Shown one piece after another: positions 9,495-62,825 of a stretch of DNA of 64,000 nucleotides. The DNA comes from a virus: IMG/VR virus record IMGVR_UViG_3300027722_000005, positions 1 to 64,000 of that record. One strand, 5' to 3'. The notes beneath the pieces are model-generated. The model worked only from the letters and a program-made list of their open reading frames with translations, did no database searches and was not told where the DNA came from. The stretch's first letter is position 1; each line of letters starts with the position of its first letter. Both the position numbers and the translations under genes were made by a program.

Positions 9495-10094
9495 ATGGCT
9501 GATGCACGGGTAAAAGACCGGGCAAAACAACTGGCACGGGGACAGGGTGACGAAACCGAAGTCACCCTGTCCACCGGCGTTCGCGTGCGCCTGCACTCTG
9601 TCTCGGGCTCTCTGGTGGAGGACGTGAAGGACGCGATTCCCTTCCCGAAAGTCCCCGTGGTCTTTATCAAGGAGAAGGAGCGGGAAGAGGAAAACCCGTC
9701 CGACCCGGGCTACCTGGCGGCCTACGAGGAAGTGCGGAACAAGCGGGGCAATGCCGTGCTGGACGCGCTGCTCCTCTTTGGCCTGGAGTTGCTGGACGGC
9801 GTGCCCGAGGGCGACTGGCTCAAGAAGCTAAAGTTCTTGGAGCGCAAGGGGCTTCTGGACCTGTCGGGCTTTGACCTGGAGGACGACTTCGACCGGGAGT
9901 ACCTGTACAAGCGGCACGTCGCCGTTGCCGGGGCCGACCTCCAGACCATCTCCCCGCTGCAATCGCTGCGGCCCGAGGAGGTGGCCCGCGCCCGCCGTTC
10001 CTTTCTGGGCGACGCGCCACGGGGAGCCGATAGAGGACTACGGGCTGAAGCACTCGATCCAGACGGGGATCGAGATGAGCCCGCTGCTGGCTGA
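9495..10094 (+). CDS. Tail assembly chaperone (G-like)
   Basis: AAGGAGG RBS; lies between tail tube and tape measure. Confidence 0.65.
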   Translation: MADARVKDRAKQLARGQGDETEVTLSTGVRVRLHSVSGSLVEDVKDAIPFPKVPVVFIKEKEREEENPSDPGYLAAYEEVRNKRGNAVLDALLLFGLELLDGVPEGDWLKKLKFLERKGLLDLSGFDLEDDFDREYLYKRHVAVAGADLQTISPLQSLRPEEVARARRSFLGDAPRGADRGLRAEALDPDGDRDEPAAG

Positions 10095-10260
10095 GTGGGA
10101 AGCGGCCCACGCGGCGAACCTGGACCTCTACAAGTGGGACCAGGGCGAGTACCCGACGGCCTTCATGGCGCGGGTGCTGGCCTGGTTCTCGCGCCATAGG
10201 GAGCTGGAGATGCACCGGGACGATGCCGTGGCAAGGGCCATGGAGCGGAAGGGCAAATAG
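10000..10260 (+). CDS. Tail assembly chaperone extension (T-like), probably reached by frameshift (alternative ATG at 10075)
   Basis: Overlapping +1 frame ORF whose stop abuts the tape measure ATG. Confidence 0.55.
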   Translation, partial: PFWATRHGEPIEDYGLKHSIQTGIEMSPLLAEWEAAHAANLDLYKWDQGEYPTAFMARVLAWFSRHRELEMHRDDAVARAMERKGK

Positions 10261-13200
10261 ATGGCGCTGAAACAATCCGGCGTGCAGCTCGTCGCCGAGG
10301 GCTCGCAAGAGTTCGTCGTCAACGTCAATAAGGCCAACGAGGCCCTGGCTCAATTCCAGAAGCAGGTGGAGAGCACCGCGTCCGCGTCTGCCCAGATGGG
10401 CACGGCGGGCATGGACAAGTTCGCCGGCTCCTTCTACGATGCCACCAGCAAGTTGACCGAGCGGGCACAGGACATCAAGCAAACCGTCGAGGCCATGCGC
10501 ATCAAGGCGCCCCAACTGGACGAGGCCAGTTGGAACAAGATTGCCGAGCGCATGGCCGTGCGGCCCATCGGGGACTGGGGCGGCTTCGCCGATGAGTTCA
10601 AGCGCGTCGCCGCCGAAGTCGTGGCCGAACAGAGGAAGATGGGCGACGAGGCCGAAGCCCTGGCGGATAGGTACAAGCAGGCCACCAAGGAGATGCAGCC
10701 CTTCGGCCAGGCGCTTCTCGCCATCGGCGCGGCGGGCACGAGCGCGGCCCTGGCAACGTCCCTCGTCGCCAGCCGCATCGAGGAGCTTGAAACCATCCTC
10801 GAAGTGACGCGCGTCAACGCCGTAAACATGGCCGAGGCCGAGCTGGACTGGACCAAGGCATCGCAGCTTTCGACCCAGGCCGTGCAAGAAGAAGTCCAGG
10901 CCGTGCGCGACATGCACCTGGCGGGCACCGTCGCCAACCAGATGGTGGCCCAGCTCATCCGCTACAACCTGGACTGGTCGCGGGCCAGCGAAATGGCACG
11001 GCTGGCCCAGGACGCCGCCGTGTTCGCCATGCAGGACTCGACCAAGGCGGCCGAGGGGCTGATCAACGGCATCATCACCCTCCAGCCCCGCGTGTTGAGA
11101 ACCTACGGCCTGCTCATCAACCTGGATGTGGCCTACGAGAAGTACGCCCTGGCCAACAACGTCGCCGCCGAGTCGCTGACCGTCGCCGAGCGGCAGGCGG
11201 CCGCCTTCAACGAAGTGCTGGCCCAGGCGCCCCAGATTGCGGGTGCTTACGAGGCGGCCATGGGCACCGGGGCCAAGCAGATCCGGTCTTTCAAGACCGA
11301 CATCATCAACTTTTCGGAAGCCTACGGTGAAGCGTTCACGCCTACCCTGGATGCCGGCGTGGGCAAGGTGAGGGAGCTGATCAACGTCTTTGCCGACTTC
11401 TCCGAACCGGCACGGGCAGGCATTGCCACGACCGTCACCGCCGCGTCCGCCTTCGCTGCCCTGTCCGGCGGCGCCATTACCCTCGCGGCCAAATTGCCGA
11501 CGCTCACAAATGCCATGACCGCCTTCGGGGTCGCTACGGGAATATCGACCAAGGCGCTCCTGGGCATGGGCGGGCTCATCGCCATCCTGGCGGGCGTGGC
11601 GGCGGCCGTCGCCGCCGCCGAACGGGCGCACCGGGAAGAGGCCCTGGCTATTCTAGCCGGGGCGGAAAACTACCGGGCGTACATCATCAGGTTGGACGCC
11701 GCCACATTGTCAGCCTACGCGCTGACCGAGGGGCTGTACAAACTGGTCAAGGCGCAGGAAGAAAGCAACCAGGCAGCCTTCGCCAAGGCGCTCGATGATG
11801 CCAAGGCTTCCCTGGACGGTATGAGCATCGTTCTCGAAGATACCGACGCCGACCTGGAAAAACTGTCAAGGGGCACCGCCGTCGCCATCTCGGCGCTCTC
11901 CGATATGCAACTCCGCGTGCTACAGGACAAGGACGCCGTGCTGGAGCTGGGAACCGAAATGGGCCTGACGGGCGACGAGTTGATTCGTTGGGTGAACGCC
12001 GTCATTAACTTGGCAACAGAGATGGCCATCGCCCGGGGAGAGACGAAGAACTACACGGCCTTCGAGCGCGAGCGCGCCCAGGTTCTCCGCGAGAGCATGG
12101 GGCCAACGGAAGACCTTGCCAAACAAACAATCAACCTATCCGCCCGGGAAAAAGAGGTCCGCGACAACCTGGTCAAGCTGGGCTACAGCATGAAGGAGGC
12201 CACGAACATCACCCTGGGCTTTGGCCTGGCGATCCACGAGTCCACCTACCAACTCAGCATCATGGAGGAGCAGGCGCTGAAGAACAAGTACGCCCTGGCG
12301 GGACTGGCCGATGCCGAAAAGGAGTACGACGACCGCATGAAGGAAGCCCGGTCCCGCGCCGCCGACCAGATGGTCGCCGCCGACGAGCGGGCCAACGACC
12401 AGCGGGACAGCGCCGCCCAGAAGCTGCACGACGACCTGATCGACCTGAACAAAGACTATGCCGACAAGGTAGAAGATATCCTCAAAGACCTGGCGCAAAT
12501 CGACGTGGATTTGCAGGCCGACCTCCTGGCGGCGCAGCAAGAGAACCTGGCGGAGCGGCAAGAGGCGTGGGATGACTACCAGCAGGACCTGGCCGACTCT
12601 GAGCGAGATTTCCAGCAGGACATGGCCGACCTGGCGACCGACCGCCAGCGGGACATCGAGGACGCCAACCGCGACTATGCCCAGGACCGGGCCGACGCTT
12701 TGCGCGACTTGAACCGCGACCTGGAAGACCTGGAGCGCGACCACACGGCCAACCTGCTGGAAATCGACCGCGACTATTACAAAGAGTTGGAGGAACTGGC
12801 CGAAGAGTACGGGCAGAAGCTGTCCGACATCAACGAGAAGTACGCCCAGGAACGGCAGGACATCGAGGGCAAGTATTCGACAGAGCCCGAGGAGCCGGAC
12901 TTCGACGAGCGCCGCGAGGCCCTTCAGGAGCGGATCGCGGAGCTGGAAGAACTGCGCCAGGGCGGCATGGGCGTCTACTACGACGCCGAGCTGATGCAGC
13001 TCCAGAAGCAACTGGAAGAACTCAAGGCCGAGGAATTGGCGGCCCTGGATGATCGCAAGCAGGCAGAGCTTGACGCCCTGGAGGCGTGGCTGGCCGAGGA
13101 GCAGGCCATCCGCGACACGGCCCACCAGGGAGCCCTGGCGGCGGAGCAGGCGGCCTACGAGGGCAAGCGGGCAGAGAAGCAGCAGCAGTACGAGCAAGAC

Positions 13201-23951: not shown

Positions 23952-24126
23952 AGTTCCCCCCTTTGCCGCCATTGCTCTTGCGGGCGTTCCCACGAACCAG
24001 GGCAGCGATTCGCCCTGTCACCGCCAAGCGCGGCAACGTGGCGGCGAAACTTGCCATCGGATGACAGGCCAATTATTCGGCCACACCGCTTGCATTTGGC
24101 CTCGCCCCACTTTAGACTACGCTCGC

Positions 24127-24858
24127 TCATTCGGCCCTCCATCCTGTCTCTTCTGCCCAACGCTTGACGGTTTTGTCGGTCGGTGCACCGCGGCCGCTCT
24201 CCGCCAAAATGCGCCGCACATCATCCGGCGACAAGTTGCGGCCATCGCCGTTCTGACTGGCGACAATGCCGCGCCAGTCTGCAATTTTGGCGACGGGCAG
24301 CGCGGCACTCGGCACACTTTCTGGCAGCGCGGGCAGAATGTCGCCGGACAGCGCCGCCAGTGCCGGTTTTGTCACGACAAGGTTCGGCGCTCCGTGCGCA
24401 ACCGCCGCCACTGCCGTCTCGTTGTCCGCGGCGATGCGCTGCGCGTAGCCGGTCGAGATGACAATGCCGATGGTTGACGCGGCGACCGCCACGGACCACA
24501 GCAGCAAAACGCCGTCATGCCGCAAAACGGCGCCAATCTCGACGCCACGAACGCCGGCCGCGATGCTTGGCGTGAGCACTGCCACGAATAGCGCGGCAGT
24601 GACCGACGCAATGCCGAGCAATGCCTTGGCGTCTTTGCGGCTTGCCCAGACAGAAAACGCAAATGCGAACGCAAACCCTTCCACCGCCGCCATTGCCACG
24701 GACACTGCGGCGCTAGCCGGCACCCACCACGGCAGCCAGGCGGCGGGCAGCGCAAAGCCCTCGGCCCACAAGAGCGCCGTCACCCAGCGCGGAATGGCGG
24801 TCAGGACTGCGCCGATCTTGATAAGGTTGGCCTGCGTTGCGGTGTCAAGTCGTTTCAC
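24127..24858 (-). CDS. Multi-TM protein with C-terminal HTH-like tail (DUF2637/Spd-like architecture)
   Basis: About 4 hydrophobic helices, low-complexity linker, PTDKTVKRWA end. Confidence 0.55.
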   Translation of the reverse strand: MKRLDTATQANLIKIGAVLTAIPRWVTALLWAEGFALPAAWLPWWVPASAAVSVAMAAVEGFAFAFAFSVWASRKDAKALLGIASVTAALFVAVLTPSIAAGVRGVEIGAVLRHDGVLLLWSVAVAASTIGIVISTGYAQRIAADNETAVAAVAHGAPNLVVTKPALAALSGDILPALPESVPSAALPVAKIADWRGIVASQNGDGRNLSPDDVRRILAESGRGAPTDKTVKRWAEETGWRAE

Positions 24859-25303
24859 AGTTGCGCCTCTCTCTTCCGATCCTGTAGGTCATGGCTACTC
24901 TTCCTCTTCCTGGCAGTCAGGGCAGATATGCTCATCGCCATTCACCAGCCAGCCCCAACCCTCTAGCTTGTCGTCTACGCCACGGGCATCCCAACCGCCA
25001 CCGGCCAGGGGCGTAAGGTCGAACTCTTCATTGCTCTCCATGCACTTGTCACACGTCACCGTAACGTAGGCATCACTCATCATGGCAACTTCCCTCCCTC
25101 TTCTGGAAACGGTATACTTCTTGCAGAATCGCCGGATGGCCGCCCTCTCCCCCTTCTTCCCATCACCACTACCCCCGCCAGGCACACCCCTGCCACCACG
25201 CCCAGCACCAGCGCAACGCCTGCGCCTTCCGTGTCGCGCATCGCCAGCAGCCACAGCGGGCCGGCGACCAGGGCGAGCGAGGCGGCGACGGCGCGGGTGG
25301 GGG

Positions 25304-39436: not shown

Positions 39437-39765
39437 TCGGCGTCGCCCCCGTCGCACACGGCGTAACGCACTGCCGCCCGCCAGTCGTCTACCCCCACTC
39501 GCACGCCGCCCCGGTACTGCGCCAGTCGCTCCGCCCACGCTTGCAGCTCGCCCGCTCGCGTCGCGTCCCTGTCGGCCATGGCGTCTCTTGCCGCCGCCGC
39601 GTGTGCCGTCCAGGGTAGCCGAGCCGTCGCCGCCAGGACGTGCGCCGCGGTGATGGCCGTCGCGCCTGCGTCGATAGCGAGGCGCTTGGCTGCGTTGGCA
39701 GCCGGCAGGCGGGCGTCGGCGGGGAGACGGGATAGGAGGCGACGGGCGGTGGCGGTGATGGTCAT
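39433..39765 (-). CDS. Hypothetical protein
   Basis: Coupled ORF between the two methyltransferases. Confidence 0.45.
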   Translation of the reverse strand: MTITATARRLLSRLPADARLPAANAAKRLAIDAGATAITAAHVLAATARLPWTAHAAAARDAMADRDATRAGELQAWAERLAQYRGGVRVGVDDWRAAVRYAVCDGGDAE

Positions 39766-42068
39766 GGGGCAAGTTCTGCCTGCTGTTCCGCTGCCCAGGT
39801 GAACAGGTCGGGCATGTTGGTCTGTGCCTCGATGGCTTGCATGTTCTTGACCAGCACGTCAAAGTATTCCGGCTTGAGTTCGCACAGGGCGGCCCGGCGG
39901 CCGAGCTTGACGGCCATGTATCCCTCGCTGCCGATCCCGCCGAACGGGGTAAGGACCGTCTCGCCCGGGTTGGAGTAGAGTTTGATGCACCGCTCGATTG
40001 TGCCGAGCTGCAAGGGGCAAATGTGCTTTTCGTCGTCTTCGCCCCGGGCCACGCTGTATTGCAGGGTGTCAGTCTCTTGGATGCCAAGCCAGATCCCGTG
40101 AGCCCACTCGATCCACGTCTCGTTGTCCATCTCGCCATGGGCAACCGGCGTAACGGGCACGGCGTTGTCGCCCGGCTTTTTGAAGATGATCACCTGATCG
40201 ATGAGGGCGGGCCGGCTGTCTGCTGAGTCCTTGCGGAGTTGCACAAACAGCAGCGCCTTGCTTTTGACGCGGATGGCCTGTGCCTGAGGATTCTTCTGGA
40301 CAAACGCCCGCCCGGTGAAAACCCAGCCCTCCGCCTCATAAGCGCGGATGACCTCGCCCGGGAAGTCTCGGACGCCAATATAGCCATCCCGGCTTGCCAT
40401 CGCCGGAATATCCGATGTGTGAACGCAGGTCAAGCGGCCTGGCTTCGTAACGCGCAGCACGTCGCGGATGATGTAGCGGTAGTGGGCAAAGAACTGCCCC
40501 CAGTCCCGGCTGTTGCCCAGGTCGCGCTCGCTGTCGGTGTAGGTGTAGAGGTCCGCAAAGGGCGGGGAGTACACCGACAAGTCAATCGAGTTGTCGTCAA
40601 GCTCGCGCAGCCGTTCCACGGAATCGCCTAGCATGGCCGTCCAGTTCTGGCCGTATTCGGTACGCTGTCGGTAGTCAAAGGTTTGTGGGTCGGTCATGGT
40701 CAATTCTCCTTCCTCGTATTCGCGGATCTGCTCAATAAGCCCCCGGCGGAGTCGGGTTGCCATTGCATCCTTGCGCTGGATGTTGTGATAGATTTCGGCC
40801 TCCAGGTCAGATAGGATTGCATGAACGTTAACCGGCAGGGTCTGCCCGAAACGGTATTCCCGGCGGATGCCCTGATACCAGGTTTCCCATGAATCGTTGA
40901 GACCGAAAAAGGCCATGTTGCGGGCGTTCTGGAAGTTCATCCCGAACCCGCCGATCCTGAGTTTGGTCACAAGCGCCCGGTGCCGGCCGTCCTGGAACGC
41001 CTCGAAGGTGGCCGCCTTGTACTCTGGCGAGTCCGAACCCTTGACCTCGACGGCACCAGGCAGGGCGTCGGTTACGGCCCGGCTTTCATCCTCCAGGCCA
41101 ACCCACACGATCCACTGTTCGCCATCGTTGCCTACCAGGTCACGAAGAAGATCGAGGCGGGCATCTATAGTCCGCCGGCGGGTCGCGGCCCGGTCGGCTA
41201 TGCCTTTCAGGTGGGTGAAAAAGAGCTGATCGTCGGATGCGTACTCCGCCTTGACGAAGTGAGGGATGATATTCAGATCGGGCAGGATAAAGCCGTTATC
41301 ATCATAGCCAAGATCGCTTGGCTTGGTGATGCTCATGGCCCAAGATGCAAGCCAGCGAAAGAATGGCTTTTCGGCCGGGTGCTTGAGCCGCCATTCCTGG
41401 CCGCCCTTGTTGCTCCCCTTGCGCCTCCACGCCTTGCCGCTGTCATCGATGTAGGTATGCTCCAGGTTGGCATTGATGAAAAACATGGCCCGCATCTCGG
41501 CTTCGGTGCAAACCCCCAAGAATTCGGCATGGTTGCCAAGCTCTGTCATGTCGTTGGGCGCCGGTGTGGCGGTACAGGCCAGGCGGTAGGGTGTATCGGC
41601 GAACATGGCGGTTAGCTTCCGGCGGGTCACGCCCGATAGCGCCTTGAGGATGCTCGATTCATCCAGTACCACGGCGCCAAAGGCGGCGGGGTCAAACTCG
41701 CTCACCATCTCATAGTTGGTGATGTTGATCCCGCCCGCCAAGTCGGAACCGGAACGGGTGTAATGAATGTCCATGCCCAACTTGCGGGCCTCGCGCACGG
41801 TTTGGCGAGCCACAGACAGGGGGGCGACAATCAGGGCTCGCTCGCCAATCAGCCGTGCCCATTCGAGTTGGATGAACGTCTTGCCCAGGCCGGTATCGGC
41901 AAAGACGGCGGCCCGGCCCTTGCGGATGGCCCAACTTGCAATGTCTCTCTGAAAGCCAAAGAGGATCGGATTGATAGCAGCCGGGTCAATATCCTTGCCC
42001 GTCGCCCCGTGAAACCGCACCTTGGAAGACAAGAATTCCTGGTAGCCCACGGCCCCCGCGCCGCTCAT
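39762..42068 (-). CDS. SNF2-like helicase fused to N4/N6 DNA methyltransferase
   Basis: DTGLGKT, LDESS, TATPAPND, GMNFQ; then SPPF, HICPLQL, VLTPFGGIGSEG. Confidence 0.9.
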   Translation of the reverse strand: MSGAGAVGYQEFLSSKVRFHGATGKDIDPAAINPILFGFQRDIASWAIRKGRAAVFADTGLGKTFIQLEWARLIGERALIVAPLSVARQTVREARKLGMDIHYTRSGSDLAGGINITNYEMVSEFDPAAFGAVVLDESSILKALSGVTRRKLTAMFADTPYRLACTATPAPNDMTELGNHAEFLGVCTEAEMRAMFFINANLEHTYIDDSGKAWRRKGSNKGGQEWRLKHPAEKPFFRWLASWAMSITKPSDLGYDDNGFILPDLNIIPHFVKAEYASDDQLFFTHLKGIADRAATRRRTIDARLDLLRDLVGNDGEQWIVWVGLEDESRAVTDALPGAVEVKGSDSPEYKAATFEAFQDGRHRALVTKLRIGGFGMNFQNARNMAFFGLNDSWETWYQGIRREYRFGQTLPVNVHAILSDLEAEIYHNIQRKDAMATRLRRGLIEQIREYEEGELTMTDPQTFDYRQRTEYGQNWTAMLGDSVERLRELDDNSIDLSVYSPPFADLYTYTDSERDLGNSRDWGQFFAHYRYIIRDVLRVTKPGRLTCVHTSDIPAMASRDGYIGVRDFPGEVIRAYEAEGWVFTGRAFVQKNPQAQAIRVKSKALLFVQLRKDSADSRPALIDQVIIFKKPGDNAVPVTPVAHGEMDNETWIEWAHGIWLGIQETDTLQYSVARGEDDEKHICPLQLGTIERCIKLYSNPGETVLTPFGGIGSEGYMAVKLGRRAALCELKPEYFDVLVKNMQAIEAQTNMPDLFTWAAEQQAELAP

Positions 42069-42831
42069 CGCACTTCCTCCAGTGCCCGCCCCTCGTAGAA
42101 CCGGCGGTTGCGCTCGGCTTGCTGCGCTTCTTGCTCGTGCCGCTCCCGGGCCTGTTCCCGCCGCGCGCGTTGCCATGCCTGCCACAGAAGGACGGGTGCC
42201 AGGACCAGCGCCACGGTGCAGGCGGCGGCCACGACCAGGACTTGCAGGGTTGACTCGATCATGGTTCTATCCTTTCGCGCGGTGTCATCACTTGCGCTCA
42301 GTCAACCCGCCGAAACTTCAGCGAGCGGCGCAAATACTCAAAACCCCCTCTGGTGATTGGGAAATCTTGAATTACGTCATCATTCGTATCGAGTATGTCC
42401 AAAACAATGTGCGAGCCGTCGTCTACCAGTCCACCCGTTGCCCGAAGGCGGCGCAGCCACAGCTCACACCCGGACCACGCCCCGCCCGGAAAGGTGCAGG
42501 CTTCATAGTACCGGAACTTGTCAGCGATGATCCGAACCGGCCTAATCGCATATGCTCTCGGGTCCAAATCAATCGACATTCCTGCTACCCCTCTCTGCGC
42601 CTTCCATTGTTTGCACCCCCTGGCGATCATTCTACTGCTCTCCCTTCCTTTGCCAGCAGCATCGAGACCTTGATCTCGTTTGCTGCTCTCTGCATGTCAG
42701 ACAGGTAGACCAGGACAAGATCCCGGTTGCCCCTGCCCAGTGCCTCGCGGGCCTTGCTGCCCAAGTGCTCGATAGTCATGGCGGCGGCCAGTGCCTCGCA
42801 CCGGCTCGCCTCGGCGTTCTTGGGCCACCGC

Positions 42832-47961: not shown

Positions 47962-49470
47962 GTGAGCAGCCGCCCCTTGCGTGTCGCCATTTGGGCCGCC
48001 GTCTCTTCCAGGCGCCAGGCCGAAGAGGACAGGGTAAGCCTTGACGACCAGGAAAAGGCGGGCCTGGCCTGGGCGGAGGGCTTGGGTGCCGAGATTGTCA
48101 ACGTCTACCGGGTGCCGGGCCACACCCGGGACATCTGGAACTGGAACGAGGCCGAACGCGAGATGCCCGCCTATCGCCAGTTGCGCGAGGATGCCCAGGC
48201 CGGCAAGCTGGATCTGTTGTGGGCTTACGACATGGACAGGCTCGGGCGCGACCCGGCGCTAGGCCAGCAGGTCATCTCCCTGGTGGAAAAGTCGGACGGC
48301 CCCAACCTGCCCCGCGCCGAAGTCTATGTCGCCAGCTCCCCGCATGTTGTCGGCTCAAAGACCATAGGCCACCGCTACATCGGCGCTATCCAGTCCGTGC
48401 GTGCCGGCGAAGACCAGGAAATGCGCGTCCGGCGTTTCAAGATGGGCATGAAGGGCCGCGTACTCCGCCATGGCCTGATGGGCACCACGATCCCGGCGGG
48501 CTACACGCGCGTCAAGGACGGCGACGGGAAGACCACCGGCTACGCCCTGGACGACAACGCCCCGGCCGTGGATACGGTGACGCGCCTCTACCTGGACGGC
48601 CTGCCCTATGCCGAGGTTGCCCGCCGCATGAACGAGAGCGGCTACCGCTACCCGGGCGGGCGTCCCTGGCGCTACTATGACATCGGCCGCATCATCCGCA
48701 ACGACGCCTATGCCGGGCGCCCGCGTCTCGGGCCGCTCCAGTGGGAAGGCGAGCCACAGTATCCGGCCATCTGGGACGATGCCACCTGGACGGCGGTGCA
48801 GCGTGAGCGACAACGGCGACGAGTGGCGCCACAGGTTTCGCACGGCGGCAACCCCTACAGCGGCGTCCTCTTCTGCGCTCGTTGTGGCGGCGGGATGAAC
48901 CAGGTGATCAGCCGCACCGGGGGCCGCGTCTATTTGTACTATCGCTGCCAAACCCACGCGCGACAGACGGAGCATGGCCGCTCGTGCCATTGCAACTTTA
49001 TCGCCCGCTGGAAGGTGACAAGCGCCCTTGTCGCCTACTTCTACAGCCTCCAGACGCCCGAACGGGTGGATGCCCTGCTTGCCGAGTATGGCGACAGTGC
49101 CGACGCCGAACGGCTGCGCGGTGAGATCGCGGCGGCGGAGAAGGCGGCGAAGGAAACCGAAGTGGCGCGCTACCAGGCGGGGCTAACGCACTCGCGAGGC
49201 AAGATGCACACGGACATTTACCGGCAGGTTGACGACGAGCTGCTTGCCGAGCTTGCGGCGCATCAAGGCCGGGCGGCGGAGCTGGCTCGACATCTGGCCG
49301 CTTTGCCCGATCTGGACGCATGGCGCAAGCAACTTGCCGACGTCGCCGGCACGTTTGCCGAGGTCATTGAGGATGGCCTTGTGGCGCCAGAGACGATAGC
49401 GGCGGCGTTGCAACGGGCGGGCGTTCGCTGCTGGGTCGAGGATGGCGAGGTCGTCAAGATCGAGCCGTGA
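47962..49470 (+). CDS. Large serine recombinase (integrase)
   Basis: AVSS..Q...SL..Q, DRLGR, recombinase domain (N.AYAG), Zn ribbon LFCARCG...YYRC, coiled coil. Confidence 0.93.
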   Translation: MSSRPLRVAIWAAVSSRRQAEEDRVSLDDQEKAGLAWAEGLGAEIVNVYRVPGHTRDIWNWNEAEREMPAYRQLREDAQAGKLDLLWAYDMDRLGRDPALGQQVISLVEKSDGPNLPRAEVYVASSPHVVGSKTIGHRYIGAIQSVRAGEDQEMRVRRFKMGMKGRVLRHGLMGTTIPAGYTRVKDGDGKTTGYALDDNAPAVDTVTRLYLDGLPYAEVARRMNESGYRYPGGRPWRYYDIGRIIRNDAYAGRPRLGPLQWEGEPQYPAIWDDATWTAVQRERQRRRVAPQVSHGGNPYSGVLFCARCGGGMNQVISRTGGRVYLYYRCQTHARQTEHGRSCHCNFIARWKVTSALVAYFYSLQTPERVDALLAEYGDSADAERLRGEIAAAEKAAKETEVARYQAGLTHSRGKMHTDIYRQVDDELLAELAAHQGRAAELARHLAALPDLDAWRKQLADVAGTFAEVIEDGLVAPETIAAALQRAGVRCWVEDGEVVKIEP

Positions 49471-50752: not shown

Positions 50753-50825
50753 GCTCTCGTAGAGGAGCGGAGTCCTCACCGCGCTGTCAACGCGGAGATC
50801 GTGGGTTCAAATCCCACCGGGGGCG
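50753..50825 (+). tRNA. trnD: tRNA-Asp (GTC), no encoded CCA
   Basis: Acceptor GCTCTCG/CGGGGGC, D stem GAGG/CCTC, anticodon stem CCGCG-CTGTCAA-CGCGG, T arm GTGGG-TTCAAAT-CCCAC. Confidence 0.9.
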
Positions 50826-50971
50826 CGTGTATCTGAAACGGGGCTCAATCTCCGCAAGTAGGATGCATCCGGCGGCGCCACCGGCTCCCACAGACTAACC
50901 GGGGGCCGGGGCGCACGCTTTACAAATCGAATAACCGTATCTGCCAGCCCGGCAGATGTTGAAAGACACAC

Positions 50972-58584: not shown

Positions 58585-58626
58585 AAAAAAAGGCCCGGCG
58601 CCGGCGGGATGCCGGACACCGGGCCT
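58585..58626 (-). terminator. Intrinsic terminator (minus strand)
   Basis: A7 run followed by AGGCCCGG...CCGGGCCT hairpin between convergent genes. Confidence 0.65.
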
Positions 58627-59333: not shown

Positions 59334-59501
59334 CTACCAGGAACGACGGCGACGGCGACCACTGCGCCGACGCAGCCGATAACTTGCGCAGCCGGTTGAG
59401 AAGTCGCCGGCCTTGAAGCCGGTGAACGTGCTTGACTTGAAGCCGGTCCTGGGCATGATGCTGCCTATGCCCAAGAGTTTGCCGAGTTTGAACTTTGCCA
59501 T
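59334..59501 (-). CDS. Small basic peptide with Arg-rich tail (55 aa, not in ORF track)
   Basis: AAAGGA RBS; ends YRLRRRSGRRRRRSW. Confidence 0.5.
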   Translation of the reverse strand: MAKFKLGKLLGIGSIMPRTGFKSSTFTGFKAGDFSTGCASYRLRRRSGRRRRRSW

Positions 59502-59505
59502 TATG

Positions 59506-59808
59506 TTATCTTCCTTTCGTTTTGTCGGGTGCCCGCTGATTGATAAATGCCCTTACGCCGATACTGCTCGCAAGCATCCCCCTAACCGTTGGGGAGTGCC
59601 TGTCGTAATGCGGACTTTCCTCGATCTCGATTGCCCCTTGCGCTTCAAGGGCTCGGTGGTGTCCATCAAGGATAAAATACCTATTCCTACCGAGTGGGGC
59701 TACAAGAATGGGGGCGTGCGCGCGCGACGTTCTGCCCGCGTCAATATCGTTCTGTGTCTCTTCCAGCTTGCAGATTTGTGCAACCAACTGGTTCTTATAG
59801 GCCCACAT
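59506..59808 (-). CDS. ParB/Srx N-terminal-domain-like protein
   Basis: PILV...YFILDGHHRALEA; AAGGAG RBS. Confidence 0.7.
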   Translation of the reverse strand: MWAYKNQLVAQICKLEETQNDIDAGRTSRAHAPILVAPLGRNRYFILDGHHRALEAQGAIEIEESPHYDRHSPTVRGMLASSIGVRAFINQRAPDKTKGR

Positions 59809-59836: not shown

Positions 59837-60811
59837 CTACAGCTCCACGCCGGCCAGGGCTTGGCGCAGATCGTCGTCGTCCAAGTGGACATAGAACGCG
59901 GCGGTTGTCGCCGCCGACTCGTGGCGCAAGATGCGCTGCGTCGTGGCCAGGTCGTGCGTTTCCTTCTGGATCAGCGTCGCGCCGCGGTGGCGCATCGAGT
60001 GCGGGTTAAAGCGGTCAACGCCGGCCGCATCGCAGACACGGTACAGCCCCAGGCGCAGGCCGTTCGCGGACACCGGCAGCAAGCGGTTGCCCGTTGGCTT
60101 GTCGTGCCGCGCAAAAAGCGGCTCGTCGCCGTCCGCGCGCAGCAATGCCGCATCCCTGGCGGACAGATAGGCGACAATGGCGGCGATTGCGCGGTCGTCG
60201 AAAAAGATTGTGCCAACCTTGCGGCCCTTGCCGGTCACCTGCGCGCACCTTGCGCCAATGTCCAGGTCATTGCGCTTGAGCGCCGCAACTTCGCCGATTC
60301 TTGCGCAAGTTGCGCGCAGGGTTTGCAGCAGCGCCGCATTCCTCAGCGCAACCAGGCGCAAGCGTTGCGACTCTTGCGCGTCACCTTGCGCAGCTTGCGC
60401 GCAAGTGAGCGCAGCTTGCACGTCCGCTTCGTCAGGTAGGCGCAACTTTTGCGATTGGCTTGCGGAGCGCCAGTCCTCTTGCAGCCCTGCCTCCAACTCT
60501 GTCAGGTCGGTTGGCGCAAAGCCCGCAGCTTTTGCGCGCAAGAGCCAGCGGTAGAACTTGACAGTGGCGGTCAGGTAGACATTGACCGTGGCGCTTGCGT
60601 GCCTGTCCGCAATGTTGCGCGCAAAGTCAATAACGTGCGCGCAAGTGAGCGCAGTTGCGTCAGTCGTTGCGGGGTCTTGCGCAAGTTGCGCCGCAAAGCC
60701 CGCCAGTGCCGACGCATACGTGCGCGCAGTCTTGGGACTCTTGCGGCCATTGCGCCCGCGTTGGCGGGGCAGGTCCGCAACAAACGCATTGATTGCGTCA
60801 GTGATGGTCAT
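59837..60811 (-). CDS. Tyrosine recombinase (XerC/D-like)
   Basis: SPKTARTY, RNAALL..L.ATCARIGEV, GKGRK, PHSMRH, LRH, FY. Confidence 0.92.
   Translation of the reverse strand: MTITDAINAFVADLPRQRGRNGRKSPKTARTYASALAGFAAQLAQDPATTDATALTCAHVIDFARNIADRHASATVNVYLTATVKFYRWLLRAKAAGFAPTDLTELEAGLQEDWRSASQSQKLRLPDEADVQAALTCAQAAQGDAQESQRLRLVALRNAALLQTLRATCARIGEVAALKRNDLDIGARCAQVTGKGRKVGTIFFDDRAIAAIVAYLSARDAALLRADGDEPLFARHDKPTGNRLLPVSANGLRLGLYRVCDAAGVDRFNPHSMRHRGATLIQKETHDLATTQRILRHESAATTAAFYVHLDDDDLRQALAGVEL
60187..60797. repeat. Cryptic ~10.45-bp-periodic degenerate array, consensus TTGCGCGCAA, inside recombinase CDS
   Basis: 22 TTGCG, 14 CGCAA and 7 TGCGCGCA hand-counted, all in helical phase. Confidence 0.85.
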
Positions 60812-60999
60812 GCGGCAGTCTCCTTCCGCATTCCCGGTGGCATGGCGACAAACAGCCGCTTCGGCCGCGGGAACGCATAGCTCCACGTCTTGAACAGCAC
60901 GCCCCGTTTGGCGGCGCCTTCGAGCTGCCGCCGTTCTTGCGGCGTTATCTGTCCGATGTCCGTCACGCCACAGTCAAGGGCGCGCTGTACGATGGTCAT
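60808..60999 (-). CDS. Hypothetical protein
   Basis: AAGGAG RBS; stop overlaps recombinase start. Confidence 0.6.
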   Translation of the reverse strand: MTIVQRALDCGVTDIGQITPQERRQLEGAAKRGVLFKTWSYAFPRPKRLFVAMPPGMRKETAA

Positions 61000-62121: not shown

Positions 62122-62706
62122 TTAGGCGGGCAGCCAGTCCCAATCGGCCAGTTCGGCGCACACAGCCTGGTAGTCATCCTCCAGGCTGGACAGCAGGCGC
62201 TCGTACTCCTCGCCGTTCACGCCGTCCACGTCGATCTTGTGGTCGTGCACGTCGCCCATCTCCACTTCGACGGTTGCGCCGGGGTTGGCCTTGACCATGC
62301 CGTCCGCGAGGGCCTGGGCGTAGCGGGCCGTCAGGTCAGCGTTGTCGTGCTCGATGCATTCGTCAACGTCGTACTCGCCCGTTTCGGGGTCCAGGCCGTG
62401 GCCCATGTAGCGCGAGCTGGTGCCGTTGCCGGCGATTTCCTCGTGGATCTCGCGGGCGCGGTCCTTGTAGTCTCCGAACCAGTCGATGATGTCCTGCTTG
62501 TTGATCTTGACCGTGATTTCCATTTTCTGATCTCCTTTCGTGACAGCCTGTCCGCTTTCGTCCGTTGCCGCTTCGGGCCGCACTTCGGCCCCGCACCAGC
62601 AGTACACGTGCCAGCGCCCCAGGGAGCGCCGCGCTTCTGCCGTGTCCCGCACCATGTTGGGTGCCCCGCACTTGGGGCATTGGAATGTGAGGACCGTGAT
62701 GGTCAT
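62122..62706 (-). CDS. Hypothetical protein, N-terminal Zn ribbon (strong internal start at 62523)
   Basis: CPKCG...CWCG; both starts have AAGGAG RBS. Confidence 0.6.
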   Translation of the reverse strand: MTITVLTFQCPKCGAPNMVRDTAEARRSLGRWHVYCWCGAEVRPEAATDESGQAVTKGDQKMEITVKINKQDIIDWFGDYKDRAREIHEEIAGNGTSSRYMGHGLDPETGEYDVDECIEHDNADLTARYAQALADGMVKANPGATVEVEMGDVHDHKIDVDGVNGEEYERLLSSLEDDYQAVCAELADWDWLPA

Positions 62707-62750
62707 CGTTCTTGCTCCTTTCGCTCTTGGGCATCCCGCCCAATGTCTAG

Positions 62751-62779
62751 ATTATATCATACAGTTGGCGGCCCGTCAA
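62751..62779 (-). promoter_or_regulatory. Sigma70-type promoter
   Basis: TTGACG-17-TATAAT with TGn extension. Confidence 0.75.
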
Positions 62780-62825
62780 GTTAAACTTTCGCAACCTAAC
62801 GGGCCGCCGTGATAGCAGGGCTGGA

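Follow-up and report, generated by a model that had tools for sequence, protein, structure and literature searches.

A helically phased array of TTGCG half-sites overprinted on a phage tyrosine recombinase gene

The tyrosine recombinase gene P0001 of the virus record IMGVR_UViG_3300027722_000005 carries, within its coding sequence (CDS), a second code at the level of the DNA. The word TTGCG(C), together with its complement CGCAA, is under DNA-level selection on a long-range helical lattice that occurs once in the genome. To carry this lattice the gene took up genome-rare codons and changed residues, while its catalytic residues were kept. The genome is a single virus contig of 87,740 bp with 62.8% G+C, whose positions 1 to 64,000 are referred to below as the window. 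The first 127 bases of the contig recur at its end (genome 1-127 = 87614-87740), and this terminal direct overlap points to an assembly of about 87.6 kb that is circular or circularly permuted. The best explanation of our results is that the first 600 bases of a functional recombinase gene double as a cis-acting DNA element.

A sequence-only reading of the window, made before the present analysis, had listed 22 starts of TTGCG and 14 of CGCAA between 60187 and 60797. Counting by regular expression returned exactly these positions, none missing and none extra, and the palindromes TGCGCGCA and TTGCGCGCAA occur in the array seven and three times, as had been claimed. The palindromes of 10 and 8 bases have no copy anywhere else in the genome. 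Enrichment was evaluated for both words in stretches of 611 bp. From a strand-symmetric 5-mer count of the rest of the genome 1.92 sites are expected against the 36 observed, in agreement with the earlier estimate of one or two by chance per array length. The mean over the 64-kb window was 2.15 sites per 611 bp, and the genome away from the locus gave 1.89 with a standard deviation of 1.51, as compared to 35-36 in the array. Nowhere else is the density of the array equalled, the maximum outside it being 9 near 24.3 kb, and no second phased cluster of the word occurs elsewhere in the genome. The runner-up in word density, window positions 24100-24900, has 10 sites in a 243-residue open reading frame (ORF) without known function, and this region (24.1-24.9 kb) is unphased with a power of 3.7-4.3. 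Within the array the base C follows TTGCG in 23 of the 36 sites, the five letters themselves being invariant by definition. Relaxing the core to NTGCG/TTGCA added 17 half-sites, giving 53 in total and filling 41 of the 59 lattice positions. Every added half-site fell on the lattice, and none of the strict or relaxed sites within the array is off it, all being at most 2.6 bp away.

Rayleigh periodograms were computed for periods of 5-30 bp. TTGCG peaked at 10.44 bp with a power of 15.2 (ceiling 22) and CGCAA at 10.47 bp with a power of 10.9 (ceiling 14), and every other peak was at or below 5.2. If the two words are treated as the left (TTGCG) and right (CGCAA) halves of a single palindrome, so that all 36 sites are referred to a shared dyad, the power is 20.3-22.7 (ceiling 36). 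All 36 dyad centres lie within 2.5 bp of one lattice, 30 of them within 1.5 bp, with a standard deviation of 1.1 bp. Regression gave a period of 10.4419 ± 0.0113 bp with a bootstrap 95% range of 10.420-10.464; a period of 10.5 bp fits more poorly, and 10.0, 10.6 and 11.0 bp give no fit. The proposal that site offsets are close to multiples of about 10.45 bp over some 58 turns is thus borne out by a measured spacing of 10.442 ± 0.011 bp over 58 turns. The related statement that every site lies on one face of the helix is correct within each orientation set, but the 5-mer starts of the two sets are about 5 bp apart, and the sets coincide only when referred to the common dyad. Because the lattice is palindromic, placing the dyad between AA and TT instead gives almost as good a fit (power 19.6 versus 21.8). 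The two orientations (22 versus 14) are interleaved and show no polarity.

None of 1000 uniform-position nulls matched the observed Rayleigh power, and gap-permutation nulls did so in 0.4-4.2% of runs. Separations between pairs of sites deviated from whole periods by a root-mean-square of 1.1-1.8 bp throughout the range of 0-600 bp, and random-walk simulations built from nearest-neighbour spacings attained the observed power in 2% of runs. The lattice has one gap of about 50 bp, which separates a left part (positions 0-33) from a right part (positions 39-58), and across this gap the two sub-arrays are in phase within 0.25 bp (+0.11 and -0.14 bp). The constant deviation up to 600 bp, the in-phase sub-arrays and the random-walk simulations together establish that the order is long-range. 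The gap coincides with the most conserved core-binding helix of P0001. It holds two 16-mers (60551-60566 and 60575-60590) that are 81% alike and 24 bp apart and that encode TVKFY and TVNVY in this helix; they may be a DNA-level or a protein-level repeat. The base steps of the array follow the same period. Among 872 genome windows none has a stronger 10.46-bp signal of CG and GC steps, which are located at the dyad; AA/TT gathers 3-4 bp away on both sides, in antiphase to CG/GC. The AA/TT periodicity taken alone is equalled or exceeded in 5 of the 872 windows.

The relation between lattice and protein was examined with codon nulls covering the whole CDS, in which 38 sites and a periodic power of 20.5 were observed. 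With codons redrawn according to genome usage, 6.7 ± 2.3 sites were obtained (at most 17 in 5000 runs); shuffling the codon order gave 7.5 ± 2.5, and permuting synonymous codons within the gene gave 16.4 ± 2.8 with a maximum of 27 in 5000 runs. The highest null powers were 15.1 for synonymous permutation and 9.2 for genome usage (2000 runs each). Both the number of sites and their periodicity therefore exceed every codon null, which is the outcome that the sequence-only reading had anticipated for codon-shuffled controls. Its further claim that the gene uses A/T-ending codons atypical for the genome is true for specific codons, namely CAA (81% in the gene versus 31% genome-wide), ACT (32% versus 7%), TTT (70% versus 35%), GTT (38% versus 13%) and AAT (56% versus 20%), but the overall third-position G+C of 0.74 is within the range of the genome. 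The codon CGC is used at 78% in the gene and at 40% genome-wide. This skew in codon choice falls exactly where the TTGCG/CGCAA word gets built.

Within the array 48 sites are compatible with the encoded amino acids, 40 of which are on the lattice. Of these on-lattice possibilities 36 are realised, against none of the 8 off-lattice ones. The remaining, last third of the CDS has 18 compatible sites, 2 of which are realised. These counts indicate that codon choice and residues both follow the lattice. The protein sequence alone permits 66 sites with a power of 11.3 at 10.44 bp, whereas fifteen homologous proteins permit 20-42 sites each with a power of at most 5.1. Longer composite sites also recur. 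The exact copies of a 17-mer are 376 bp or 36.01 periods apart and encode RATCAR in one frame and AQLAQD in another. Since 376 bp is not a multiple of 3 and two frames are used, this recurrence is not a protein repeat, and with sites present in all three codon phases the array as a whole is not explained by protein repeats, as had been argued earlier. The first 17-mer copy contains the catalytic Arg171, whose codon AGA is rare, occurs once in the gene and completes a site. The copies of a 19-mer are 22.98 periods apart and share a common frame (ALTCA). The codon and periodicity nulls, the potential-site counts, the two-frame 17-mer and the protein-only imprint that is absent in the 15 homologues all uphold the suggestion of a second code laid over the CDS.

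The array spans codons 5-208 of P0001. The protein matches the Pfam family Phage_integrase (PF00589) with 72.3 bits (cut-off 27.1) and Phage_int_SAM_1, the SAM-like core-binding domain, with 35.7 bits (cut-off 22.3). That the catalytic residues are kept was confirmed in a five-sequence alignment, in which R171, K195, H271, R274, H297 and Y307 are invariant; we take these to be the R..K..HxxR..H..Y catalytic positions of tyrosine recombinases. The closest solved structures are XerA, XerD and XerH, and the nearest proteins are 40-43% identical, the recombinase P0002 being at 43%, followed by others at 32-33%. P0001 aligns end to end with ordinary recombinases and has no internal duplication. The messenger RNA (mRNA) of the gene has a modest folding advantage over 20 shuffled versions (z = -2.6); a 10.44-bp period with a shared dyad could not arise from RNA pairing.

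A second copy of part of the array is present in a metagenome contig, L130, which contains the first 243 nt of the gene at 95.6% identity. The homology begins 9 nt before the ATG, and the gene upstream differs. L130 keeps 13 of the 15 sites of the shared stretch, the other two being lost through a change of CGCAA to CGCAG, and has one new site, 2.1 bp from a lattice point. Because this independent contig has the same sequence with 11 differences, an assembly artefact is argued against. The intergenic elements and the promoter region of the operon are also 85-97% identical between phage and L130, while the small genes between them differ; this pattern is a cassette-like mosaic with conserved boundary elements.

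More distant relatives do not have the array. TTGCG was not enriched at 9 homologous loci from the genome collection (24-32% identity) or at 79 metagenome loci (29-35%). Of these 88 loci 86 were recovered by tblastn, or 87 with L130, and apart from L130 none has a comparably dense 5-mer. The four densest distant loci that were tested showed no phased 5-mer, nor did nine TerL-related loci (48-54% identity) show a phased 5-mer array. As to whether relatives keep a phased array at this locus, a check proposed by the sequence-only reading, the 96%-identical L130 carries it and 87 distant homologue loci do not. A DNA search of the phage collection gave no relatives, and a protein search of the same collection gave only integrases of less than 32% identity. 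Scans of viral contigs with P0001, P0018, P0017 and the alignment A4 gave no relatives, the exact 19-mer was not found in viral contigs, and a search for shorter protein fragments found none. P0017 and P0018, two neighbours of the recombinase described below, are absent beside the distant recombinase homologues. A scan with a three-hexamer pattern returned at least 120 loci, mostly tandem repeats of 6, 9 or 12 bp, with none like the array among the matches listed. Since the distant homologues, the TerL-related loci and the pattern-scan loci hold nothing comparable, the array is a recent, lineage-specific overprint. One unrelated locus, positions 10000-10600 of a giant-virus contig from a metagenome-assembled genome (L015, 32% G+C), has 22 TTGCG/CGCAA sites in 600 bp with a peak at 10.84 bp and a power of 12.8; it was chosen by the search pattern itself and is a biased sample. 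Literature searches on the 10-mer palindrome and on in-gene phased sites found nothing relevant, and no description of ordered overprinting on such a scale was found in the literature searched.

Table 1. Features of the recombinase locus (window positions)
Feature	Position	Strand	Remarks
Helically phased lattice, 36 TTGCG/CGCAA half-sites (22 + 14)	60187-60797	.	Period 10.442 bp
Tyrosine recombinase gene P0001, 324 residues	59837-60811	-	Pfam match; AAGGAG precedes ATG
17-mer composite site	60299-60315	.	Spans two lattice positions; identical copy 60675-60691, 82% copy 60384-60400
19-mer composite site	60396-60414	.	Identical copy 60636-60654
Lattice gap, positions 34-38	60546-60594	.	Encodes conserved core-binding-domain helix (TVNVYLTATVKFYRW)
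Promoter-like site	62751-62779	-	11 of 12 consensus positions and upstream TG
63-residue ORF	60808-60999	-	Stop overlaps recombinase start (ATGA)
P0017, 100-residue ORF	59506-59808	-	Directly downstream of recombinase
55-residue ORF	59334-59501	-	Arginine-rich tail
P0018	58662-59330	-	N-terminal helical region, then two excisionase-type HTH_17 winged-helix domains
G+C-rich hairpin followed by T-run (minus strand)	58593-58626	-	Read directly from sequence
Elements conserved in L130	61427-61522, 62704-62823, 63210-63275		L130 1849-1944, 691-810 and 1-71

The recombinase gene is located towards the end of a leftward operon of early type, made up of small genes (Table 1). The promoter-like site is the probable start of this operon, and the segment around it, 62704-62823, is 94% conserved in L130. 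As the promoter is of the sigma-70 type and conserved, a bacterial host is suggested. The hairpin with its T-run, identified by eye and absent from the list of a consensus scan, probably marks the operon end. The 63-residue ORF that overlaps the recombinase start had no family match in profile scans, and L130 has a different gene in its place. Downstream, P0017 is possibly a stand-alone ParB N-terminal (ParB/Srx-like) domain. The indications for this are leads only: ParB_N clusters make up 5 of 30 Atlas feature matches, and there is a weak match to SbnI (E = 0.049). P0017 has no Pfam match at E ≤ 0.01, and the 55-residue ORF that follows has no Pfam match either.

P0018, three genes downstream of the recombinase, matches HTH_17 with E = 3.5e-5, its 24.4 bits being under the 27-bit cut-off. 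Each half of the protein matches the whole HTH_17 profile weakly (E = 0.012 and 0.094), and its Atlas neighbours are HTH_17 clusters. The sole match of the family profile in the PDB was 4j2n, with a marginal E of 0.0035; this entry is described as Pukovnik Xis (PMC11963761). The P0018 family comprises 51 clusters at E ≤ 0.001, mostly single-domain proteins of 125 residues and some with 4-5 tandem domains. P0021 is a tandem-HTH protein with 84% identity to P0018, and P0022-P0025 are relatives with a single HTH. Among the relatives of its DNA-binding domain are proteins of 210-254 residues with four tandem HTH_17-like stretches (P0038, P0039, P0049, P0050, P0052, P0063, P0066 and P0072). In such proteins excisionase-type domains may be strung together covalently to read one helical turn after another.

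We tentatively favour the possibility that the array is a one-face filament platform for P0018, the predicted Xis-like tandem winged-helix protein of the operon. On a straight or gently curved duplex the lattice would turn all its sites to the same side, and for this reason many small domains or a rigid surface would be required to read it. The monomer of a tyrosine recombinase forms a clamp over 11-13 bp of DNA or more, so the recombinase itself could not occupy 10.4-bp intervals, whereas small winged-helix or ribbon-helix-helix domains can. Many copies of such a small DNA-binding domain might bind side by side and cooperatively, one per turn. P0018 is ranked first as the candidate because an Xis-like two-domain protein is encoded in the operon and exact composite sites span two turns; from genomic context, the 17- and 19-base sites would suit a protein with two domains. 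A filament over the recombinase gene would shut off or tune transcription of the int/P0017/P0018 end of the operon, would supply a bent accessory architecture for the recombinase reaction, or both. Excisionase-type directionality factors do likewise on a much smaller scale. The earlier suggestion of a platform for a protein filament or DNA wrap is reasonable in view of the 10.44-bp period, the phase order over 600 bp and the antiphase of CG/GC and AA/TT. A recombination-linked scaffold is the best contextual fit among the four candidate functions that had been listed, given the predicted Xis-like HTH_17 gene in the operon.

Operators of directionality factors are described as being about one helical turn apart, bound cooperatively with bending of the DNA, and often located beside int (PMC7498355). 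The known sites covered by that account are direct repeats, 3-7 per array, in non-coding attachment-site (att) arms or promoters (PMC7498355). Filaments of RdfS, Cox, BldC and lambda Xis are reported with one protomer per DNA turn (PMC11963761). The array agrees with the operator arrays of 186 Apl, P2 Cox, lambda Xis, Pukovnik Xis, RdfS and BldC in having sites about one turn apart, its 10.442 ± 0.011 bp falling within the 10-11 bp operator spacing, and in its link to a tyrosine recombinase gene; a putative HTH_17 gene is in the same operon. In the published accounts consulted, small proteins of the winged helix-turn-helix (wHTH) type bind these arrays cooperatively on one face, bend or compact the DNA and control recombinase expression. 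Unlike such arrays, the one described here extends over 58 turns, with 36 strict (53 relaxed) half-sites that point both ways and stay in phase over 600 bp. The sites are not head-to-tail repeats but interleaved, and the whole array is in the int CDS and not in a non-coding att arm or promoter. We therefore propose that it would work like a wHTH directionality-factor array by analogy, but do not call it a member of that class because direct-repeat orientation and non-coding location both fail and the array is an order of magnitude larger.

Several further observations weigh against a P0018 filament, in addition to the mixed orientations and the 36-53 half-sites inside a CDS. The HTH_17 score of P0018 is under the cut-off and its PDB match is marginal, and the recognition-helix regions of its two domains differ. 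No TTGCG cluster was found at any promoter, so that P0018 would have no other operator in the genome. The second recombinase of the genome, a large serine type, clouds the role of the tyrosine recombinase. Finally, 2 of the 11 mismatches between L130 and the window are in motif positions where 3.2 are expected, a sample too small to show selection either way.

The binding sites inside a gene also have precedents. Cis sites within coding sequences include the ori-lambda iterons in gene O, P1 pac in pacA and parS in spo0J. As in these cases and in archaeal att-in-int genes, one stretch of DNA codes for a protein and carries binding sites. Those elements measure tens to about 200 bp, have few sites and are in the gene of the protein that uses them. 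Here, in contrast, the element fills two-thirds of the recombinase gene, the amino acid sequence was reshaped, and no unwinding tract, terminase or partition motor is nearby. A bolder proposal, which we regard as unlikely, is that the recombinase gene was rewritten, residues included, as a gene-length nucleoprotein rail, a 58-turn docking lattice for a partner protein. Gene and cis element would then be one inseparable, exchangeable module, with the gene itself providing the accessory arm, or the address, of the complex for its recombination or control. Among bacterial viruses it would be the counterpart of the archaeal integrase modules with att inside int.

A partition centromere, coated by a small centromere-binding protein with one dimer per turn and segregating an extrachromosomal prophage as in type Ib/II plasmids, is unlikely. 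In type Ib/II plasmid centromeres small dimeric proteins coat short repeats, spaced by about one turn, and so form a continuous superstructure, and ParR/parC-type segrosomes have one binding unit per turn with dyad symmetry, resembling the lattice. The array is similar in its repeat spacing, is of unique high density with one per genome, and belongs to a genome that closes into a circle through its terminal overlap; the candidate ParB N-terminal-like P0017 adjoins the recombinase. However, the known type Ib/II-like centromeres are intergenic, which counts against this explanation, and are located beside ParR/ParM or ParG/ParF genes. No ParA, ParM or TubZ family was detected among 48 ORFs scanned with Pfam or PHROGs profiles, and a crude regular expression gave no deviant Walker A or tubulin signature in 121 ORF calls, so that the centromere-like site suggested by the sequence-only reading has no recognisable partition nucleoside triphosphatase among the ORFs covered. 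P0017 has no Pfam match, and the presence of two recombinases, one beside a transfer RNA (tRNA) gene, suggests integration over a plasmid state.

It is also improbable that the array acts on a host protein, as a wrap or a decoy, or through its intrinsic DNA shape, in which case the duplex would bend in one plane and wrap around or titrate a nucleoid protein, gyrase or a regulator. The genome's strongest 10.46-bp periodicity of CG/GC steps, the AA/TT flanking the dyad and the long-range phase order are as this explanation would have them, and the phage-encoded binder proposed above, P0018, is a candidate. On the other hand, the conserved unit is a specific word, followed by C in 23 of 36 sites, and exact 17- and 19-mers recur, which favours sequence-specific recognition over shape alone, and the AA/TT periodicity by itself is unexceptional.

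The array could further be thought of as the accessory arms of a recombination site inside the recombinase gene, with in-phase sub-arrays flanking a crossover core in the gap, like the archaeal 'suicidal' integrases; we consider this quite doubtful. The lattice is indeed split around the 50-bp gap with its short repeats, and the L130 homology that starts 9 nt before the ATG below another upstream gene suggests that the gene acts as an exchangeable module. An att site inside int is described as making a compact, exchangeable module (PMC8371274), and in that account such integrases are known only in archaea (PMC8371274), while the sigma-70-type promoter found here points to a bacterial host. The gap is the most conserved segment of the protein, which alone suffices to explain the missing sites. 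A hand check of the site positions also found no recombinase core sites, that is, no inverted binding repeats with a 6-8 bp spacer.

A packaging (pac) site, where a small-terminase ring would bind the phased sites and wrap the DNA, is very unlikely. Such sites inside coding sequences and with phased repeats exist, and the array is a unique site in a circularly closing genome, but TerL (genome 71573-72832) is at a distance of 10.8 kb and has an HNH endonuclease gene as its neighbour, the pair occupying 70.9-72.8 kb. The array is at the end of an early-type operon of small genes, and profile scans found no terminase-like gene adjacent to it, so the pac region named by the sequence-only reading is disfavoured by position. 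There is very little probability, too, that replication starts at the array, with iteron-like initiator sites placed in a gene in the manner of lambdoid phages. Repeated, phased sites inside a CDS and a DnaB-like helicase encoded in the genome are in line with an origin. No A+T-rich unwinding tract is beside the array, however, the lowest 60-bp G+C being 0.47 about 650 bp away; the cumulative GC skew does not turn at the array, the gene is a recombinase and not an initiator, and the replication genes are 18-27 kb away.

That the array has no function and came about through composition, dipeptide content, an internal duplication, RNA folding or errors of assembly is scarcely credible and already largely refuted by the tests run: the somewhat better mRNA folding and a sole close relative without evidence of purifying selection on the sites stand against codon, dipeptide-order and position nulls that were all exceeded, unused off-lattice opportunities, a 17-mer in two frames, a protein without internal duplication, a period that RNA pairing cannot yield and the independent L130.

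Three other candidates were rejected. FtsK-type polar guide sequences, and with them the DNA-translocation cis site proposed earlier, are ruled out as the sites have no orientation polarity. A sigma-70 promoter sponge is ruled out by the lack of any promoter-like site in the array. Restriction or methylation targets would account for the enrichment of GCGC-containing palindromes but leave the phasing unexplained.

Other genes in the genome code for tail and head proteins, for glycosyltransferases and for an FtsK-like protein. The large serine recombinase (47962-49470, plus strand), with Resolvase, Recombinase and zinc-ribbon domains, is 1.3 kb from a tRNA-Asp gene (50753-50826, plus strand), which was the only Rfam match at the gathering threshold between 45 and 64 kb. 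The phage thus has two unrelated site-specific recombinases, either of which may integrate the genome. At 39762-42185 (minus strand) an 807-residue protein is encoded in which a helicase C-terminal domain is fused to an N6/N4 DNA methylase; a regular expression picked up in it a DG.HR motif of the ParB-nuclease type.

The array shows how far a coding sequence can bend to carry a second, structural DNA code, with two-thirds of an enzyme gene placed on a 10.44-bp lattice at sub-turn precision over 600 bp while the catalytic residues survive. The measured period is an unusually precise sequence-derived estimate of a spacing selected over 58 helical turns, and the potential-site test and the protein-only imprint can be reused for finding other overprinted signals. 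If a filament-forming partner exists, no other ordered array for an Xis-like or similar small DNA-binding protein would come close to this one in size, and structural studies of nucleoprotein filaments would have a natural substrate. The self-regulation of phage recombination modules, and their transfer between genomes as units, would become accessible as well.

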